A DNA stretch of 15,011 bases, from the NCBI GenBank assembly GCA_044356455.1, contig JBIKWF010000108.1, positions 1 to 15,011 on the forward strand, read 5' to 3'. The notes beneath the pieces are model-generated. The model was not told the origin of the DNA, made no database searches, and saw only the letters and a program-made list of their open reading frames with translations. Position numbers and translations under genes: made by a program. The stretch comes from Bdellovibrionota bacterium (GTDB lineage: Bacteria > Bdellovibrionota_C > UBA2361 > JBGSMV01). Of this stretch, positions 2,372 through 11,800 are shown one piece after another (the first letter of the stretch is position 1; every line of letters starts with the position of its first letter).

Positions 2372-2809
2372 CTACCCCCTACTCTGATATCGAGCAAGCT
2401 GGGCCCGGTAGAACCGAATGGTCGCGGGATCGTCTATGCTCCCGCTCTCGATGCGCTCTCCAAGCTCGCCCAAATGCGTCCCAGCTGAGTTGAAATCGCC
2501 CGATCCAAGCAGTCCCGCGACAAGGTAGAGCAGCGCTGCAGCTGAATCGCTATCAAGCTTCTGTGCCTGCTGAGCACACGAAATAGCTTGGTCAAACGAC
2601 TTGTTATTTAAATGGACGAATGAAAGGCAAAGCCACGCGGGCGCAAATTCAGGAGCAACGGCAACAAGTCCGTCGGCAATACGCTCAGCTCTCCTGTAAT
2701 CACCATTCTCCAAGGAAAAGCGCGCAAGCTCGTAGATATTCGCGACTTCCTCGTCGGAATATCCACGTTTAAGAACCTCAGAACTAAGTCTTGGGCGAGC
2801 CGGTTTCAT
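2372..2809 (-). CDS. TPR protein resembling class II T3SS chaperones (SycD/LcrH/CesD-like)
   Basis: GYSDEEVANIYELARFSLENGDYRRAERIADGLVAVAPEFAPAWLCLS resembles the SycD pattern G-S--leqiYa-A---y--G-y--A. About three TPR-like helical pairs, 145 aa. I placed the start at ATG 2809 because it overlaps the upstream stop (ATGA). Confidence 0.7.
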   Translation of the reverse strand: MKPARPRLSSEVLKRGYSDEEVANIYELARFSLENGDYRRAERIADGLVAVAPEFAPAWLCLSFVHLNNKSFDQAISCAQQAQKLDSDSAAALLYLVAGLLGSGDFNSAGTHLGELGERIESGSIDDPATIRFYRAQLARYQSRG

Positions 2810-3063
2810 TTCGGTTCCTCCGGACGAACGGCTAGCCAATCAAGGACTTCCTTAAGCATAGATTCTTCAGCCGCCAAGCGCCGAAACGCAGCTCGGTCCG
2901 GCTCGGTACTCAGCTCGTCCTTTAATCCTTGCACCTTCTCAAAACGGGCAAAGAGCGAAGAAGTAAGCGGGGAGAGTCCGCCCACTCGCCCAATCACCGG
3001 CAATAGCAGCACTAGGGGCGATAACCCGAAGGGATCAGGTGGTGAGAGGAGAGACTTCTTCAT
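2806..3063 (-). CDS. Small hypothetical protein (85 aa) with a helical C-terminus
   Basis: ATG start, co-oriented with the export cluster. Its TGA overlaps the TPR gene ATG by 4 bp, which suggests translational coupling. Confidence 0.7.
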   Translation of the reverse strand: MKKSLLSPPDPFGLSPLVLLLPVIGRVGGLSPLTSSLFARFEKVQGLKDELSTEPDRAAFRRLAAEESMLKEVLDWLAVRPEEPK

Positions 3064-3133
3064 AGGTTTAGACTAGCGAATTAGATTGTTTCCTGGAAGA
3101 AGGAGGTTCGGTTGAGGAGAAAGAACTCTGAAA

Positions 3134-3808
3134 CTAATCCCTGCCCCCCTCGGCCTCAATCTCCCTTCGGCTCATGCGGTGGCGGCGCCTAAAGTCGAGT
3201 TGCTCTAGCACCATAGCCGCAAATCCGCCCGCCAGCGCTAGGGGGGCAATGGTAAACACCACGCCCTTGAGAAGCCCAGAGGCAAGTTTCGCAAATGCAT
3301 CTGCATCGATGCGCGTTATCCCCATCCCAAGAGAAGCCACAAAGGCGCCGATAAGAACGCCCATCACTATCCAACCGAGAGCCTTTATACTCGCAGTCAC
3401 GCCCCGACCCCCGATATTCTCAAAGCCAGAGAGCCCAAAGATTCGTTCCCCCTTAAAGGCCACAAGGTCCGGTTTTACGAGAAACTTGGTCTGTACCAAG
3501 CCTGAAAGTATCACCACCACAAAAGCAGCAACGAGTGGTGTAAAGAGCAACACCAGCAAGTCCTTGCTTATTTGCCCTAATCGTTCAGCGGTAAGCGCAT
3601 CAACCCCCGGCTCCCCGGAGCTTCTCACAAGTCCCTCGAACTCTCCCCACCAGCTCATTAGTTCCGTGCGTAGCGCCCAGGTAGAAAGCATGAGCGTGCC
3701 CAGGGCTAAAAGAAACGCGGCAGCAAACGAATAAGGAACCTTTCCCTCGTCTCGTAGCTCTTGAAGTTTATTCTGAGAGGGGGCCTCTGTTTTGTCTCCA
3801 CCTTCCAT
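3134..3808 (-). CDS. sctU: SctU/FlhB-family export protein, membrane domain only (no cytoplasmic NPTH domain)
   Basis: N-terminal DKTEAPSQNKLQELRDEGKVPYS matches the FlhB/YscU KTE-PT-kl--ar--G-V--S signature. It has LVQTKFL, four hydrophobic segments and LDFRRRHRMSRREI (cf. lrMsk-Evk-E), then a stop. Confidence 0.85.
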   Translation of the reverse strand: MEGGDKTEAPSQNKLQELRDEGKVPYSFAAAFLLALGTLMLSTWALRTELMSWWGEFEGLVRSSGEPGVDALTAERLGQISKDLLVLLFTPLVAAFVVVILSGLVQTKFLVKPDLVAFKGERIFGLSGFENIGGRGVTASIKALGWIVMGVLIGAFVASLGMGITRIDADAFAKLASGLLKGVVFTIAPLALAGGFAAMVLEQLDFRRRHRMSRREIEAEGGRD

Positions 3809-3819
3809 AGGCTTACTTT

Positions 3820-4440
3820 CTACTTTCCGAGGCCACGTTCCCGCGCAGAAGCCAAGAGGCTCTTCGGTGAAAATTCATGCGCAAAAAGATCTACAAAAAG
3901 CTGCAAAGAGGCTCCCGCGATGAGCAAAGCACCCAGCAAGCGCACGCCGCTCCAGGGAATAGCAAGCTCAACCTTGCCCATGCGAGCTCCAAGCATGACG
4001 ACCCATTGGCACGTAAGCTGGCCAAGAGTAACCGCAAGGGCGGTCGCCGCAGAACAAAACAAAACCGCCCCAAGCGCTGAGACAAGAAGGGCGGACGCAT
4101 ACCCAGTTTCTGAGCCTTGAAGAGCAGCAAGCATGGCATTTAAGTGCTGTAGCCAGTCTCCTCCAGAAAGAAGCAACCAGAGCGACAAAAGCACCACGAG
4201 CGCTCGAAGAGACTTCACCTGCCCCCGCACTTCACTAAGACGCTCCACGAGAATCACAGAGAAACCAGCGGCTAAAGGCACGAGCAGGATAAGAATTCCG
4301 ACCACAAGGTTCGCCGGAAAGGAGAGTTCAGGCGCCACGACATGCAAACAAAGCGCAATCGTCGCCGCCAAAGCGCAGCCCACTGCCCAAAGGCCAAAGG
4401 CACCAAAGATAAGCGCCAGAACTATTAGGAGAGTCACCAC
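3820..4440 (-). CDS. Hydrophobic membrane protein, positional SctT/FliR analogue (highly divergent)
   Basis: Lies between sctS and sctU, where SctT/FliR normally sits. 206 aa, multiple TM-like segments, LWLLLSGGDWLQHL (cf. FliR lFl---gH---l). Sequence signature weak. GTG start. Confidence 0.6.
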   Translation of the reverse strand: MVTLLIVLALIFGAFGLWAVGCALAATIALCLHVVAPELSFPANLVVGILILLVPLAAGFSVILVERLSEVRGQVKSLRALVVLLSLWLLLSGGDWLQHLNAMLAALQGSETGYASALLVSALGAVLFCSAATALAVTLGQLTCQWVVMLGARMGKVELAIPWSGVRLLGALLIAGASLQLFVDLFAHEFSPKSLLASARERGLGK

Positions 4441-4449
4441 TTCCGTTTC

Positions 4450-4698
4450 CTATTTCCAGCCTAATTCACTTAAGCGCGTAATAGATGAAATGAACCCGGG
4501 AAGCATCAGGTAAAGCACCGCCCCAATAGCGAGCACCCTGGCCGCATATCCGAGCACTGGCTCACGTATGGTGGTCGCAGACTGGAAAACTCCCATAACA
4601 AGCCCAGCCAGTGACGATGCAAGAATCAGTGGGGCTCCAATCAGCACCAAAGCCCGCATGGCCTCTGACACTATTTCGTAAAGATTTGAGGAATGCAT
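4450..4698 (-). CDS. sctS: SctS/FliQ-family export-gate protein
   Basis: 82 aa. EAMRALVLIGAPLILASSLAGLVMGVFQSATTIREPVLGYAARV matches the FliQ pattern (al---l--s-P-l---l-vGl-isifQa-TqiqE-tl-f-pK). GGAG RBS upstream. Confidence 0.88.
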   Translation of the reverse strand: MHSSNLYEIVSEAMRALVLIGAPLILASSLAGLVMGVFQSATTIREPVLGYAARVLAIGAVLYLMLPGFISSITRLSELGWK

Positions 4699-4715
4699 GT
4701 GGTCTCCCCTTCGTT

Positions 4716-5363
4716 TTACCGATACCCCGAGAGCAGTTTCTCAGCGATCAGAGTCCAGCCATCAACGCTAAAGAAAAGAAGCAGCTTGAGAGGCAAACTT
4801 GCAATACGGGCTGAGATTTGAGTGATATGAAGAGCCATCAACAAATTGACAACCAAAAGATCAATAACCACAAAGGGCACGATAAAAAGTACGCCAAGCT
4901 CAAGCGCCTTCTTAAGCTCGGTAATCATAAAACTTAGCGCCAGAGCTGAGAACGAAAGTGAAGGAGTAGGACCTTTCGCCTCACCACTAGCTGCTGATTC
5001 CTTATGAGAGTTCTCTGACTCCGCCGGGGCGCTCGCAGGGGCAGCCGTGAGAGCCGCAAGTTTCCCCATGACAGAATGGTCCGCATTGCGTTCCATGAAG
5101 GGCCGAAACTGTTTCTCAAGAGTATCGCCGCTGACCTTTAGCTCACCCCGCAAAAGTCCTTCCAGCCCTCCCATGGGCTGAAGCTGAGGCTGCATAACCA
5201 CCGCCGAGAGCAGGAGCGCAAAGCCCCCGACGATGGCCCCCATTCCGAGCCCCTCAAGCCCCATTCCCACGCGCAGCACACTAAGCGCCGTGAAAATTTT
5301 GGCGAAGGAGGTAAGAAGTAAAAGGGCGAGAATTCCACCAAGGAATACGGGCAACGAGTCCAT
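4716..5363 (-). CDS. sctR: SctR/FliP-family export-gate protein
   Basis: LLLTSFAKIFTALSVLRVGMG (FliP TSF-ki--vl--lR-alG), SFMITELKKALELGVLFIVPFVVIDLLV and SLPLKLLLFFSVDGW are diagnostic. No FliP-type N-terminal signal peptide, which is more SctR-like. Confidence 0.92.
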   Translation of the reverse strand: MDSLPVFLGGILALLLLTSFAKIFTALSVLRVGMGLEGLGMGAIVGGFALLLSAVVMQPQLQPMGGLEGLLRGELKVSGDTLEKQFRPFMERNADHSVMGKLAALTAAPASAPAESENSHKESAASGEAKGPTPSLSFSALALSFMITELKKALELGVLFIVPFVVIDLLVVNLLMALHITQISARIASLPLKLLLFFSVDGWTLIAEKLLSGYR

Positions 5364-5456
5364 GCCACGACTATAAGGGGTTGGGGCTTCATGGGGCTAT
5401 ATGGAAAGAGAGCAGGCATGGGAGGCCACCTGCTGTGAGGGCATCAGAATGTTTTC

Positions 5457-5536
5457 ACCACAAAGGACGCAAGGGACACAAAGGAATACGTTGAAATTGC
5501 TATTCTTAATTGAGCTTTCTTAGCGTCCTTTGTGGT
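5457..5536. repeat. Palindromic element (ACCACAAAGGACGC ... GCGTCCTTTGTGGT) related to the one at 2210-2280
   Basis: Perfect 14-bp inverted repeat (5457-5470 / 5523-5536). The left arm shows the same roughly 9-nt internal periodicity (CACAAAGGA CGCAAGGGA CACAAAGGA) as CACAGAGGG CACAGAG. Confidence 0.75.
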
Positions 5537-5669
5537 CCAATAAAAGCTTAAGTAAATTTAGCGTTTTACGCCGAACATTCTTGCGCCTTAACCTCCTGTG
5601 CCCTTGCTTGATTAGCCCCTTGGAAACGGGCTTACTACTCACCCGAAGTACATAGATTTGTATCCTTGT

Positions 5670-7214
5670 ATGACAGCCCCCTCTCCCGACCCCACCCCAG
5701 ACGATCAATCCCGCAGGGAACCTGACCGCTCGGATGGTCTCGGATCTCCGGCCCTCTCACCCGAGCAAAAACGAACCGCCTTACAAGAGGGAAGAGAGCG
5801 TCTCACCTCTTGCTTTCGGATAAGCGCGCCCCTTAAGGGGTGGTCCCTCTTTACTGAGGAGCAAATCACCGAACTTAAAGATTTCTGGAGCGATGCGCTA
5901 CGAGCATACTCTTTATACGAGCTTGACAGCGAAACGCCAGGAGCTCTTAATGAGCTCCAAGTTCATTTCCTCTCGGCTGCGGAAGATGATGATGCAATCT
6001 ATTTCCTCGTCTGCCTTGAGGATACTGCACAAGTCACTGCGGTTGCCGTGGGTCAACAGAACAAGCTAGTCCCCCTCTCCTACGGAGCCCACGTCGCCCG
6101 CCTGATTGCGCTGCCTCGGAGTTCATCGCCGGAGATACTCGAAAGCGCGGTAGACTTAGAGACGGAGGACTCTCCAGTAGGTGAAATGCTGCTCATTGAT
6201 CCTCAAAGTATCGCCTTAGAAGCGCGGCGCTTGGGGGCCGGGGATCTCTCGGGGCTCCTTGGCGACTTGTTTCTGGCGTCCCTCGAAGATGCTAAGGGAG
6301 AGGCCACTCTGCCCGAGAACAGCTGGGAGATATCCCCAGGCTGCTTTGCCAAAGAAGAGCGCGGGTTCTACTCCTTTGCCTTTGCGGGAAAGGAAAGCGG
6401 ATCTTACTTTTTTGATATCCAGCACGAGCCGGGAAGCAATTTTTTAATCTATAGTCTTTGTGCCCCTCGAGCCCCTCAAAACAGCCCCCCCGCTTCCCAG
6501 GGTCAGAGAATTCCGCAAGGCACACTCGTTCCTTCAATCTCTCCCGCAAGGGCGCTGCACGAGCTTGGATATCATGAGATTGAGTCTCTCCCTGTGCCAG
6601 GAGGCTCTCCTCCGGCAGAAATCTTTCAGAATGGGATACGATCCCTGCTTAAAGACTGGGCACCAAGTATGCCTTGGCGTGTGCAGTACGAGGCCTGCTT
6701 TGCGAAACCATCCGACCCCGAGGGGAAAATCCTGATCCACGCCTCTGTACGTGGGGGAAACAACGCTTTCCTCCTTCCCTTCCTTAAAGGCAATGCCTGT
6801 GTTGTGAGCAGCAAGGCTCTTGGCCTACTCATTGAAGCCCGGCGAGAGCAAGTAACGCCAACCACGGTCCGCCTCTGCTACCAACCAAGAATGGTTTTTC
6901 TTGGACCTCAAGGGCAACTTGAAGATTTCCTGGCGCAGAGCCTCACCGATCTCCCTAATTCCCTCCTTGGAGCTTTTGCCCTTAGCGCCATCAAGCAGCA
7001 TTTGGACAAGAGAAGTATCAAATGGCTTTCGGGTAACAACTACGGACATGTGCTCTCGTCACTGTGTGAAAGAGACGAAACATGCGCGGGACTACTTTGC
7101 TTTCACTTGTTAGGCGCACACAAATTACTGATTCAAACTCTCGCCGGCGGACTCCTTGATCTTGCGACAGGAGTTCAGCCGCAGGTTCTGTACCCGGAAC
7201 TGCCTCCTTTCTAA
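5670..7214 (+). CDS. Hypothetical protein (about 514 aa), no recognisable family
   Basis: Long ORF with no competing long ORF. First ATG at 5670 (the ORF track starts at TTG 5658). Pro/Ser/Asp-rich N-terminus. Confidence 0.8.
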   Translation: MTAPSPDPTPDDQSRREPDRSDGLGSPALSPEQKRTALQEGRERLTSCFRISAPLKGWSLFTEEQITELKDFWSDALRAYSLYELDSETPGALNELQVHFLSAAEDDDAIYFLVCLEDTAQVTAVAVGQQNKLVPLSYGAHVARLIALPRSSSPEILESAVDLETEDSPVGEMLLIDPQSIALEARRLGAGDLSGLLGDLFLASLEDAKGEATLPENSWEISPGCFAKEERGFYSFAFAGKESGSYFFDIQHEPGSNFLIYSLCAPRAPQNSPPASQGQRIPQGTLVPSISPARALHELGYHEIESLPVPGGSPPAEIFQNGIRSLLKDWAPSMPWRVQYEACFAKPSDPEGKILIHASVRGGNNAFLLPFLKGNACVVSSKALGLLIEARREQVTPTTVRLCYQPRMVFLGPQGQLEDFLAQSLTDLPNSLLGAFALSAIKQHLDKRSIKWLSGNNYGHVLSSLCERDETCAGLLCFHLLGAHKLLIQTLAGGLLDLATGVQPQVLYPELPPF

Positions 7215-7218
7215 GCAG

Positions 7219-10200
7219 CTATTTCAGCAAGCTCGCATAGAGCTCATCGCTCTGCTGAGCTGCGTGCAAGGCCACTTTAATGAGAGTCTCATCATCGAGA
7301 CCATCAACCTCATCGGTAAGTGGATGCGCCGCCAGAAAATCAAGCGCCAAACGATAATCATAGAAGGCGAGCACCCTGCTTTGAGCCTCACGCCTTGAAA
7401 TCACATCGAGATAGAGATGCTGGGGGAGAAGTCCCATTCTTAAATAAAGAGCACTAGCCGCGGCAGAGTTTTTCACTAAGAGTTCCTGAGGGTTCTCTTT
7501 AAGACGAACGACCCCCTTACTCATCACGGAGACCTCAGCCCCAGGAGGCGTCTTAGAAGCAGCCCTCTCTGCCTGTGTAAGCACGTCGCTAAAAAGCGCG
7601 CAAAAGACATTCTCATGGGTGCGAATAAGCCCCTTTCTCAAATGGCGAAGTGAATCTCTTGCTGCCTTGAGATGTGCGGCGAAATCTTCGCGGTTTTGCG
7701 CCGAGGAAGCGATTTTTACGATGTCCCGCGTTGCCGTCTTAAGAATAGATCTTGTTGGCATAACGAAGTCTACTTTCCCAGGCCCCCAAAGAGCGCCCAA
7801 AGTCTTGCTTTCAAGATACGAGCGCTGAACTGCCGCAACTTCAGAGCTGAGAATCCCAAGAGCTATTTTGTCTGGTGACTCACTGGCTCGGAGCCGCGAA
7901 AGCACTTCGCCGCTACACTCCTCTGCTCGAATCGATACCATCTGTGTATAGGCACAATTGAGAAGAATCTGGGCGGCAATCGGTGGTAGCCCAGTAGGCT
8001 GCAAATGGGGGTAATGGGGAGAGCGGAAAAGAACACAGAGCTCGAGGAGAACTTCATAGGCATCAAGCTCAGCACCTGACTTGACGCGGTCGTTCATATG
8101 TTGACCTAACACCGTCAAGCAGCCAGCAAGGCAGCGCGGCGCAGCTAAGGCAAAATGTCTATGAGCTTCTCTCAAAAAGAGCGCATCGCGAGGACTCGCT
8201 CGCTTTAAAAGCCCCTCGCGAAAGCGCAGATACGCCTGAATTTCAGGCGACTGCGCTGCTTCAGCCGCCAATCTTTCATAATGACCATACATTTTCGCTG
8301 AAGTTGTGGAGAGCTCATCTCCAAACGCCAAGAGTCCCGCCTGCCCCTCGGGTAGCCTTGCGTTAAAATCTCTCGCGATTCTCTCAACAATCGAGGGCAG
8401 CCCGTTCCGATACACGCGTCCGAGCTCTAAAAGCTCCTGATCAATTCTTATCCCAAGGTCCTTTATCTTCTCGACCTTTGGATCCTTATCCGATTCACCA
8501 AAAGCCTGGGGCGAGAATGAAAGACCTCCTGAAGCCTCTCGCAGATGAGTCGTGGGACGTAGAACCGGGGCCGGGGCAGCAGTGCTGCGCAGGGTTGACC
8601 CGCGAGAACGCTCGAGACTCTTTTTATAAGTATCCAGCATGCGCCACTCGTGCGCCACAAGCTCATCCTCGGAATACAACAGTTCTTTTGAGGGGAGAAG
8701 GTCGGAGGCCAACTCAAGATAGGGTCTCGCCTGCATCATGAAGCGCTCATACACGCGCTTCTCTTCAGCGGCCAAGTCGGCTCGTACTCGGTCCTGGACC
8801 GTTGAAAACGCAGCAAGAAGGGCAGAGTTCTGGTGCGCCCACTCTTCAGGCGCGCTTCTTCGCTTTGACAGCCTCTCAATCGCAGAAGCTTCCTTCGCGA
8901 TAAGCACACGTAAGACGGCTTCTTCAAAACGACCGGAATCGCTTAAGAGAACTCCTTCAATAAGGCTAAGCTCATCTGAGCCAATCCTCGCAACCGAAAC
9001 ACCAGTAAGCTCACCATAGAGCTCCTTCAAAAGCCCCTCCCGGGCAGTCGAGAGAGTACGCTCGACAATCTTCAAACGGAGCTGTTCACTGGCGCGTTCC
9101 TCATCCGTGAGTTCTTGAGGACTTCCCAATATTCTTTGCTCCTCGGCGGACGTGAACCCCCTCCCCGCCTGCACACGCGCAAGAAGTACTTCAACTTTCT
9201 CGGCTATCTGCTCACCACTTTTCCCAATACGCTCGAGCCAAGAAGTGAGATCTTTAAGGGTATGAGTGTTCCCTGCTTCAGTCGCCTGATCCACAACCCG
9301 TAGGAGTCGAATGAGAAGATCGGAATGCTGCTCCTCTTGAGCGATGAGATCTTCTATTGAGACGTAGCGCAAACTTTGCCCCAGTCTCCTGCCAAGTGCT
9401 CCGAGTTCCACAAGCCCGAGAGCCTCTGCCTCAGCGTCGAGACTAACATTGGAGTCGATGGCCAAGCGCATCAAGGGACAGGGGTGCCGATAGACAACCG
9501 TGACATGTCCCGGAAGTCCCGTGCGCCTTTCATAGGCACAGAGCTGCGCAAGCGCAGAACGACAGATGTTCTCGTAAGAGTTTCGAAATTTTGCTTCGAC
9601 AATCTCCTCTCCCACTAAGAAATCAAGAAATACATGCGAATGAGGGTGACCCTCAAAATCTTTATAGGCAATCGGAAGTTGCACCTGCCTCTTCACCGCA
9701 AGTTCTTCATAATGCAGCGCAAGATATACCCCCACATAGGACTCAAAGAGATTTCCCTTAAGGAAGCGGTCCAAAGAGAGCTCAAGAGAAAGGGAATTTT
9801 TAATACGCTCGACCTCAAAGACAAGGGCGCGTTTGCGCTTGTCCTCTGTCGCTTCTGGAGTGCTGCTCGCAGCCTGCTCCGCGAGGGCACCGAAATGGTA
9901 GCTCACCTGAGCAGGACTAAGTTCAAGCTTAAAATCACGCTTCACGATCAAAAGCGCCTCGTCTCTAGACATGAGTCCCTGGGCAACGAGTTCTTTGAAT
10001 GTTTCAATAACCTTGCGCGCCTCTTGAGGAATGCGCCGATAGAGGCTGGGACTTTGAATGGAATTTACAATCTTAATTCCCTCGCGCGTGAGTTTTTCGT
10101 TGACCTCTCGCACGAGATCGTCAAATCCCTCAGGGAAGCGCTCGATTGACCACGCCACGCGGTCTTGGCGGCGAAATGCCGACTTGTAAAAGCGCGCAAA

Positions 10201-10359
10201 GGCGCCGCCCAAGTCAATCAAAGTTGTAGGACGAAGCTCCTCGCGCAAAGTTCCCTTGCGATACAAATCAACAAGATCAGAAAGGACCGACTCAATCGCG
10301 TCGCCCTTTGCCGGGTCCCAGGTGATGCGGGAGTTGGAAGAAGTTACTTCGCGTGACAT
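7219..10359 (-). CDS. Large hypothetical protein (1046 aa) with an internal GxxExxY-like PD-(D/E)xK nuclease domain and a long helical C-terminal region
   Basis: 3.1-kb ORF. Residues ~202-290: GNLFESY...VKRQVQLPIAYK...FLDFLVGEEIVEAK...AQLCAYERRTGLPG, which follows the GxxExxY/PDDEXK_3 pattern (v-rQv-lpv-Yk...r-Dllv---vivElK...aQl-nYlk-tgl--G). Confidence 0.85.
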   Translation of the reverse strand: MSREVTSSNSRITWDPAKGDAIESVLSDLVDLYRKGTLREELRPTTLIDLGGAFARFYKSAFRRQDRVAWSIERFPEGFDDLVREVNEKLTREGIKIVNSIQSPSLYRRIPQEARKVIETFKELVAQGLMSRDEALLIVKRDFKLELSPAQVSYHFGALAEQAASSTPEATEDKRKRALVFEVERIKNSLSLELSLDRFLKGNLFESYVGVYLALHYEELAVKRQVQLPIAYKDFEGHPHSHVFLDFLVGEEIVEAKFRNSYENICRSALAQLCAYERRTGLPGHVTVVYRHPCPLMRLAIDSNVSLDAEAEALGLVELGALGRRLGQSLRYVSIEDLIAQEEQHSDLLIRLLRVVDQATEAGNTHTLKDLTSWLERIGKSGEQIAEKVEVLLARVQAGRGFTSAEEQRILGSPQELTDEERASEQLRLKIVERTLSTAREGLLKELYGELTGVSVARIGSDELSLIEGVLLSDSGRFEEAVLRVLIAKEASAIERLSKRRSAPEEWAHQNSALLAAFSTVQDRVRADLAAEEKRVYERFMMQARPYLELASDLLPSKELLYSEDELVAHEWRMLDTYKKSLERSRGSTLRSTAAPAPVLRPTTHLREASGGLSFSPQAFGESDKDPKVEKIKDLGIRIDQELLELGRVYRNGLPSIVERIARDFNARLPEGQAGLLAFGDELSTTSAKMYGHYERLAAEAAQSPEIQAYLRFREGLLKRASPRDALFLREAHRHFALAAPRCLAGCLTVLGQHMNDRVKSGAELDAYEVLLELCVLFRSPHYPHLQPTGLPPIAAQILLNCAYTQMVSIRAEECSGEVLSRLRASESPDKIALGILSSEVAAVQRSYLESKTLGALWGPGKVDFVMPTRSILKTATRDIVKIASSAQNREDFAAHLKAARDSLRHLRKGLIRTHENVFCALFSDVLTQAERAASKTPPGAEVSVMSKGVVRLKENPQELLVKNSAAASALYLRMGLLPQHLYLDVISRREAQSRVLAFYDYRLALDFLAAHPLTDEVDGLDDETLIKVALHAAQQSDELYASLLK

Positions 10360-11228: not shown

Positions 11229-11314
11229 GACACAGGTAACAAGACAATCCCGTTTTAACATCCGATAGGCCACCGCCAAAAAGCGGCTTGCGCTCCGAAA
11301 GCCCCGTCGACCCC

Positions 11315-11800
11315 ATGTCCGAGCTTATAAAAAAGTTTAAATGCGGCTCGATTCTTGAATTCGACCAGGGGCGCTTTGACGGCTGGTGCATCTACCACAC
11401 TGCGCCAGGCTCGCCGCGGATGGCTATCAAAGACATAGAGATTTTTGGAGAGCTAGAGCTTATTGGTTGGAGGGTAGGCGCGCTGAAGCTGTATCAGGAA
11501 TTCTGCTACATTTACCTGAGAACCAACTCGCTTCTTAGCGCAAAAATAGTAGCTGAGATTTCTGACCTTAGTCTCAAATACGGAGCAGTATCAGAACGAG
11601 TGGATTACTTGCTTACATGCCTCTACGCTGGAATGGTTGCCGAAGAAAACAAAGCTGGTGCCGTTCTTCGAAAGCGAGTGAAACGCCTTGGCGTTCATCA
11701 GCTCCTCGTGGAGGAACGCCCCCCTAGTTACGCCGCAAATTTTAGCCGCGGGAAGCCGTCTCAAGAGCTCATGATAGAATGCGAGGTTCGGGGGTTCTAA
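11315..11800 (+). CDS. Conserved hypothetical protein, DUF7004-like
   Basis: Motifs FDQGRFDGWCIY, LYAGMVAEENK, LRKRVKRLGVHQLL, AANFSRGK and a terminal GF match my recollection of this family. ATG at 11315 is in frame with the track's TTG 11288. Confidence 0.75.
   Translation: MSELIKKFKCGSILEFDQGRFDGWCIYHTAPGSPRMAIKDIEIFGELELIGWRVGALKLYQEFCYIYLRTNSLLSAKIVAEISDLSLKYGAVSERVDYLLTCLYAGMVAEENKAGAVLRKRVKRLGVHQLLVEERPPSYAANFSRGKPSQELMIECEVRGF

Follow-up and report, generated by a model that had tools for sequence, protein, structure and literature searches.

Among the systems described so far, the one most like the locus treated here is the T3SS* of Myxococcus xanthus (MXAN_2434-2464), a T3SS (type III secretion system) without needle and secretin but with SctJ, SctQ, SctRSTUV and tetratricopeptide repeat (TPR) chaperones, which is functionally paired with the FHA-rich Tad pilus Kil (PMC10433427, PMC12075869). 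According to the accessible text of PMC12075869, Kil and T3SS* co-localise and the Tips may replace the needle, and a 2025 review, in its accessible part, restricts their co-occurrence to the Cystobacterineae (PMC12428579). Another likeness is to the 'short' non-flagellar T3SS locus of the Myxococcales (Abby and Rocha 2012), a minimal, vertically inherited second system without secretin or needle (PMC3459982). T3SS and Tad-like genes are both reported to be encoded by Bradymonabacteria, without mention of their linkage in the text available (PMC11509652), and a Kil-like Tad is reported for 81% of Bdellovibrionota genomes in a source whose accessible text does not mention T3SS (PMC13200544). 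Here we analyse a 15,011-nt stretch of DNA from a Bdellovibrionota bacterium (assembly GCA_044356455.1, contig JBIKWF010000108.1), probably of the class UBA2361 to judge from PMC13200544, called the window below, which is the entire contig C95 of a 4.7 Mb, 93% complete genome (G000) and carries six tightly packed open reading frames (ORFs), all on the minus strand, at 2372-5363. These six genes, coding for a type III export gate and two small companions, are the distal third of one ancestral cluster in which Tad and T3SS genes form a single gene run. In the literature searched, excluding subscription papers and supplements, we found no description of such a joint Tad-T3SS operon.

The position of the six genes at the distal end of this cluster follows from their synteny with SctQ, SctJ, SctV2 and Tad genes across genomes. 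The conserved order runs from Flp pilin, CpaB, CpaF, TadB and TadC through SctV, a pseudokinase and two FHA proteins to SctJ, a 73-amino-acid (aa) orphan, a SctO-like protein and SctQ, and closes with R-S-T-U'-orf85-TPR, where U' is a SctU reduced to its membrane domain; in the maps of relatives the second half reads FHA - Zn/FHA - SctJ - 73 aa - (FliJ/SctO-like) - SctQ - R-S-T-U'-orf85-TPR. Everything from the Tad genes to the TPR gene lies on one contig in six genomes belonging to both orders examined (G005, G051, G058, G045, G047 and G059), where the genes upstream of the FHA pair are a pseudokinase/HEAT gene, SctV2, TadC, TadB, CpaF and CpaB, followed beyond CpaB, where the available DNA reaches, by Flp pilin and a CpaE-like ATPase and, in G005, also by a Ser/Thr kinase, an FHA protein and a PP2C. 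The pilus components present are Flp pilin, CpaB, the CpaF ATPase, TadB, TadC and TadE-like pseudopilins; the Flp gene, whose match (E 1e-6) is under the cut-off, precedes CpaB in G000 and in four of six other loci. SctV2 stands between TadC and the pseudokinase in 16/16 genomes tested as well as in G000, and in 43 of the 54 accepted loci no more than 6 kb separate R from a SctQ gene upstream of it, a count that omits L008 and L009 as duplicates of G013 and G016, as well as the loci of a second system. FliP-family matches were found in 41/41 genomes of the first search of relatives, and orf85 is single-copy in 104/124 genomes of the phylum (68/73 of the high-quality ones).

In G000 itself the cluster is split over three contigs, with the SctV2-Tad block on C184:7006-22326, the upstream half (SctJ, SctQ and the FHA pair) on C24:2684-8131 and the distal third in the window. 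There, the six genes lie between metG (422-2098) and a 518-aa ORF (5658-7214), with intergenic gaps of 17, 9, 11, 70 and -4 nt. A sequence-only reading of the window had noted exactly this arrangement, six co-oriented genes between metG and an orphan gene with no further apparatus gene around them, and both observations are confirmed by the ORF map and by the lack of any T3SS gene besides the six on the contig. It had also called the module stand-alone, which is true for the window only, because the partner genes lie on other contigs.

That the six genes act on their own, or that they supply a spare gate to the flagellum or to a second non-flagellar system, is therefore a highly improbable interpretation, largely refuted by synteny: the ancestral order ties the gate to SctJ, SctQ, SctV2 and Tad, and both other systems own R, S, T and U each. 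What speaks for it is that the genes are physically separate in G000 and bordered by interspersed repeats, and that the gate is apart from SctQ in 11/54 loci, three of which are at contig ends, within 2 kb. Over cut-off, the genome holds three FliP/SctR, three FlhA/SctV, three FliF/SctJ, two non-flagellar SctQ and two FliI/SctN genes. The flagellar set is on C110, C16 and C111, with a complete flagellar gate on C110. A second needle-less non-flagellar set comprises a gate (G000:C127:34992-43376) and a sigma-J-Q-SctV3 block (G000:C7:16099-21970), which presumably belong together; in this C127 gate, SctU ends immediately ahead of the NPTH position, and two genes on there is a free FlhB-C-like gene of 91 aa. 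A further free FlhB-C-like gene occurs on C176. The search of the whole genome for SctR, SctV, SctJ and SctN families thus confirms the window gate as a paralogous third set, at the same time as it places its partners elsewhere in the genome.

The phylogenetic position of the cluster is in agreement with this. In a quick tree, the one used for SctV, the 15 SctV2 rows group together in a single clade (SH-aLRT 99), to which the flagellar, pathogen-type and V3 sequences do not belong. In the SctR tree, 17 cluster R proteins are split from the 11 others with a support of 99, outside the flagellar clade and in a clade of their own; only this split is used, because branches are long and the root is weak. 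No Myxococcota were named among the best 120 SctV and the best 120 SctR matches, most of which come without an organism name.

All six genes are under purifying selection, which is relaxed on T and U'. Compared to G001, a genome of the same genus, the window genes have nonsynonymous divergence (dN) values of 0.14-0.82 and synonymous ones (dS) from 1.9 to saturated (metG dN, 0.19), as estimated by a simple counting method that is here near saturation. Between G024 and G035, dN is 0.11 for R, 0.15 for S, 0.41 for T, 0.42 for U', 0.08 for orf85, 0.11 for TPR and 0.09 for each of the upstream genes Q and J, with dS at least 1.9 throughout, and dN is far under dS for all six genes. Window DNA is found in lake-water metagenomes, where 9 of the 24 runs listed, among them possibly the source run itself, contain at least half its words, and in four metagenomes, whose reads cover most of the window, there is no indel within the genes; none of the runs listed with window DNA is an RNA data set. 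The idea that the genes are the decaying remains of a lost T3SS, which T and U', so divergent and shortened, might bring to mind, is difficult to reconcile with single copies in 104/124 genomes, dN values so far under dS, a point of U' truncation shared across the family and the lack of indels within the genes in four lake metagenomes, and we give it hardly any credence. The proposal that this is no simple decay but a repurposed or paralogous gate of a non-canonical T3SS finds support to the extent that the gate is paralogous, non-flagellar, needle-less and under purifying selection.

The gate is altered across the family, and the sequence-only reading had noted that all four of its genes are divergent. 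SctR (4716-5363; 215 aa; PF00813, E 6e-34) retains the core SctR motifs, as in FliP, but its M-loop is replaced (I-T-Q), and across 57 distinct sequences, the R of G016 being left out of the count, no loop has two Met, and in 56 of them position 2 or 3 is polar or charged. The loss of the M-loop is not decisive either way, since loops with fewer Met occur in working systems: at least two Met are seen in four of six reference SctR/FliP sequences, and two working ones deviate, this genome's own FliP (MIT) and the Burkholderia SctR (MNQ). SctS (4450-4698; 82 aa; PF01313, E 4e-14) is recognisable by its family, as is U' (3134-3808; 224 aa), which ends where the linker begins and matches PF01312 over positions 2-218 of 335 only (E 8e-21); the scores of R, S and U' are all under the NCBIfam equivalog cut-offs. 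In 0/48 loci (one gene being counted twice, L008 = L023) does SctU' have an NP[TSE]H motif, the protein stopping in or just after the linker, without a cytoplasmic domain, at a truncation point common to the family. Complementation of U' in trans by a free FlhB-C would be unlikely, judging from the sequences, because U' lacks the linker strand.

The third gate gene, T (3820-4440; 206 aa), is barely recognisable and has no FliR/SctT match of its own in Pfam or NCBIfam. Its position and transitive profile homology nevertheless suggest a shortened and strongly eroded SctT: the profile of its order matches that of the sister order (hhalign 66%, E 6e-5), which in turn matches FliR/SctT (97.8%, E 1e-12), compared to 3.7% (E 0.011) for the direct comparison of the first with FliR/SctT. 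A monomer model of T (pLDDT 86) gave no FliR/SctT at E<=0.001 in Foldseek, and in a wide VIA fold search its best matches were unrelated helical proteins (Z 8.8 at most). Profile searches of the PDB with the alignments of T, orf85 and the TPR protein returned nothing specific. With SctV2 on C184, R, S and U' assigned by Pfam and T by transitive profile, the SctRSTUV export set is present, and SctV2 retains both its charged loop (RVxEVxARFxLDxxPGKQMxID, variant in 2/15 rows) and a non-flagellar-type SQxYGxMDGAMKF segment.

Such losses are what a gate that does not secrete could afford, which makes a closed scaffold the strongest rival of the exporter that we favour below. Here R-S-T-U' would be a closed core nucleating the SctJ, SctV and SctQ rings and would act as a scaffold or contact sensor, positioning or switching on the Tad pilus through the FHA and kinase proteins. 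It would fit the joint loss of the M-loop (0/57), of the SctU cytoplasmic domain (48/48), of the ATPase gene and often of the stalk, as well as the erosion of T and U', the fastest of all, next to conserved cytoplasmic parts. In Salmonella, as far as the accessible text of PMC8239009 goes, the M-loop seals the channel, and a gate without FlhB-C is inactive, does not leak, needs no gasket and stays shut. On the other hand, SctV2 keeps its charged loop, and all four gate genes and the pair following them are kept in both orders, beyond the obvious needs of a scaffold. We consider this reading possible, if rather unlikely.

The pair in question consists of orf85 (2806-3063), coding for a conserved three-helix protein of 85 aa (predicted helices 16-24, 27-51 and 57-76), and the TPR chaperone gene (2372-2809; 145 aa), whose start is more likely ATG 2809, with GGAGG upstream and a 4-nt overlap with the orf85 stop, than TTG 2839. 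The two proteins are predicted to bind each other. Their complex scores 0.84, as against 0.02 for the best of three controls, at least 85% of the contacts are common to the runs and the partner pLDDT is at least 75; out of 157 solved complexes 116 attain this mark, out of 215 mismatched pairs 2, a calibration only roughly valid for alignments such as these. In the predicted complex, orf85 lays its last helix (65-73) against the first TPR (25-51), and its residues 16-30 make a further contact with the chaperone, probably within the groove. The two genes form a single reading frame in G022 and G060.

This is much like the arrangement of Yersinia YscX and YscY, where a small gene is likewise followed by a TPR gene and, in the accessible text of PMC9163089, a short helix and two long ones do the binding, the last helix on the N-terminal TPR. 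The high score may reflect this likeness to solved pairs. Our pair differs in following sctU, the Yersinia pair preceding sctV, and in that orf85 lacks similarity to the YscX sequence. The TPR protein matches SctY (NF052415, E 3e-11) and SycD (TIGR02552, E 1e-8), both under cut-off, and the two profiles match 20 and 19 of 25 family members, respectively. It had been described as a SycD-like chaperone, of which the TPR chaperone and a sub-threshold SycD match remain; the YscX:YscY topology of the predicted complex makes 'SycD' the weaker, less likely label and SctY-like the better one, with a putative SctX-like role for orf85. Class II chaperones of the SycD/LcrH type bind translocators encoded beside them; no translocator-like gene is seen in the cluster maps, and the neighbour of the TPR gene is the soluble orf85, for which Foldseek gave no match and the ESM Atlas only low-score clusters. 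That orf85 might be the split-off C-domain of SctU was considered and rejected, as it has no PF01312 match and the genome has two free FlhB-C proteins, on C127 and C176.

Needle, dedicated secretin and ATPase genes are all missing from the cluster. The needle family SctF (PF09392) had no match at E<=0.1 in G000, the one genome searched for it, and no translocon is recognisable in the gene maps, although no family search was aimed at it. G000 has two secretins only, in T2SS (type II secretion) and PilQ-type operons, and the 16 relatives each have one to three, by a family count irrespective of context; the CpaC N-domain (PF13629) is over cut-off in 0/17 genomes (16 relatives and G000), and no short PF00263 gene was found besides one frame cut by a contig start. 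None of the six intact clusters has an ATPase or inner rod gene, and the sole remaining candidate for a rod is the 73-aa ORF. In G000, this orphan (C24:4007-4225, between SctJ and SctQ) is among the best-conserved genes of the cluster (87% to G001); it has no family match, the ESM Atlas returned nothing for it, and its interpretation as a FliG fragment was not borne out. The only non-flagellar type III ATPase of the genome is in an isolated SctL-SctN pair (G000:C112:41217-43190), far from both non-flagellar gates. Classed by score, one lower-scoring SctN-type ATPase is found in 12 of 16 relatives and never two, whilst two high-scoring copies occur in each of G051 and G058, by score only as well.

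If these observations are put together, the cluster could code for a needle-less exporter at the inner membrane, co-encoded with a Tad pilus that delivers the cargo on contact with prey. We favour this interpretation, at slightly less than an even chance, and it has a precedent in the export model for Kil and T3SS* of M. xanthus (accessible text of PMC12075869 and PMC10433427). R5S4T1 with the trimmed U' would sit in the SctJ ring, over the SctV ring and SctQ, and the orf85:TPR pair would act at SctV as a SctX:SctY-like assembly or gating pair. With no needle there would be no substrate switch, and the cytoplasmic domain of SctU would for this reason become dispensable. Export would be driven mainly by proton-motive force, with or without the single non-flagellar SctN/SctL of the genome, and it would fall to the FHA proteins, the Ser/Thr kinase, the pseudokinase and the PP2C to time the assembly with the Flp pilus. 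The cargo would then pass out of the periplasm by way of a borrowed secretin of PilQ or GspD type and be received, during prey contact, by the co-regulated Flp pilus.

Several observations weigh against such an exporter. The rate at which T and U' evolve is some four to five times that of J, Q, orf85 and TPR, and 16/57 M-loops have a charged residue, which fits a closed gate. The SctO-like gene is absent from several clusters (e.g., G005, G017 and G024), and no lower-scoring SctN-type ATPase is found at E<=1e-80 in 4/16 genomes. Comparison of orf85 with two SctX gave no hidden Markov model or hhalign signal, and YscX binds SctV through a long C-terminal helix extension, which orf85 does not have. 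Finally, the step across the outer membrane is left unexplained, as by two Pfam families the Tad is without a CpaC-type secretin.

The last point also bears on what the pilus is for. Export along with a Tad pilus could serve adhesion or attachment to a host (an alga, a protist or a biofilm) instead of prey killing: elsewhere Tad pili are mostly adhesive, according to the accessible text of PMC8460266, the lineage is uncultured and its DNA comes from lake-water metagenomes, and this Tad is unlike Kil in having no CpaC-type secretin that we could find. The same source, however, gives FHA-rich Tad loci as the signature of Kil, the known members of the Bdellovibrionota, to which the relatives belong, are predators, and seven TadE-domain matches further to the cluster's own suggest Tip-like sets, all of which make adhesion improbable as the main role. 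Of these eight TadE matches in G000, six are over cut-off, and two loci with tandem TadE-domain genes resemble minor-pilin Tip sets (G000:C203:6249-10845 and C62:3843-10506).

An extension of the exporter would make it a single hybrid nanomachine, ancestral to the phylum, with a type III ring and an ungasketed, switch-less gate inside a secretin-less Tad under Ser/Thr-FHA control, where the Tad ATPase and proton-motive force would replace SctN, and the pilus the needle. It is a tempting speculation, though a rather doubtful one.

Whichever way it works, the cluster differs from every system it resembles. In M. xanthus, Kil and T3SS* are separate loci, T3SS* has SctD, SctI, SctN and SctL and Kil has the secretin KilC; here, Tad and T3SS share one gene run, SctN, SctL and SctI are missing from the cluster, CpaC was looked for without success, SctU is cut short and the M-loop is gone. 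The 'short' locus has an ATPase and an inner rod, both missing here, where SctQ, a SctO-like protein, an X/Y-like pair and Tad are found instead. By gene content alone, and not by phylogeny, the cluster thus appears to fall outside both myxobacterial loci. With the flagellar FliPQR-FlhB the gate shares the P-Q-R-B gene order and the core SctR motifs, but the window R and its partner V are outside the flagellar clades and the genome has its own flagellar loci elsewhere. A canonical injectisome would have the SctU NPTH and cytoplasmic domain, a dedicated secretin and a needle, none of which was found. The cluster is neither a canonical injectisome nor a flagellum.

As to the surroundings of the six genes, non-coding interspersed repeats border the module at 2170-2305 (left) and 5438-5575 (right). 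Inverted symmetry is seen within the left one, which has 412 matches of at least 60 nt, with 120 contigs matched in all and inverted halves counted twice, as against 33 for the right one; both reach very high depth in lake metagenomes. These repeats may have helped to break the ancestral cluster in this genome. The 518-aa ORF (5658-7214, plus strand) has no Pfam or NCBIfam match and occupies the place of SctQ in relatives. In the same-genus locus L010 (G001:C55), J-Q-R-S-T-U' is intact and some 5 kb of other genes lie between U' and orf85-TPR, which still comes before metG, like in the window. In both orders, a group made up of a 111-aa protein and two divergent sigma-70-family genes converges on the end of the cluster; many relatives have it adjoining the TPR gene (e.g., L011, L024 and L058), in G000 it is at C117:38717-40977, and its members are possible dedicated regulators. 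A promoter and terminator scan of the locus gave a signal no better than chance. Farther away, the window has a GC-rich direct repeat of about 100 nt at 1-360, downstream of metG, present as two complete copies spaced by about 137 nt plus part of a third, a 1046-aa protein (7219-10359, minus strand) in which nothing but a weak nuclease-like stretch (PD-(D/E)XK / GxxExxY) was recognised, at residues 213-283, and a DUF7004 protein (11288-11800, plus strand).

By what means the needle-less T3SS* and Tad cooperate in myxobacteria is an open question, and in the accessible part of PMC12428579 their co-occurrence is described as limited to one myxobacterial suborder. Tad and T3SS genes in one gene run, in a different phylum, provide independent genetic evidence that the two can form one machine, and the pseudokinase, the two FHA proteins and the 73-aa orphan are candidates for linking them. 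In addition, a gate without M-gasket and SctU cytoplasmic domain, parts thought to be essential, amounts to a natural experiment on the requirements of a type III gate.

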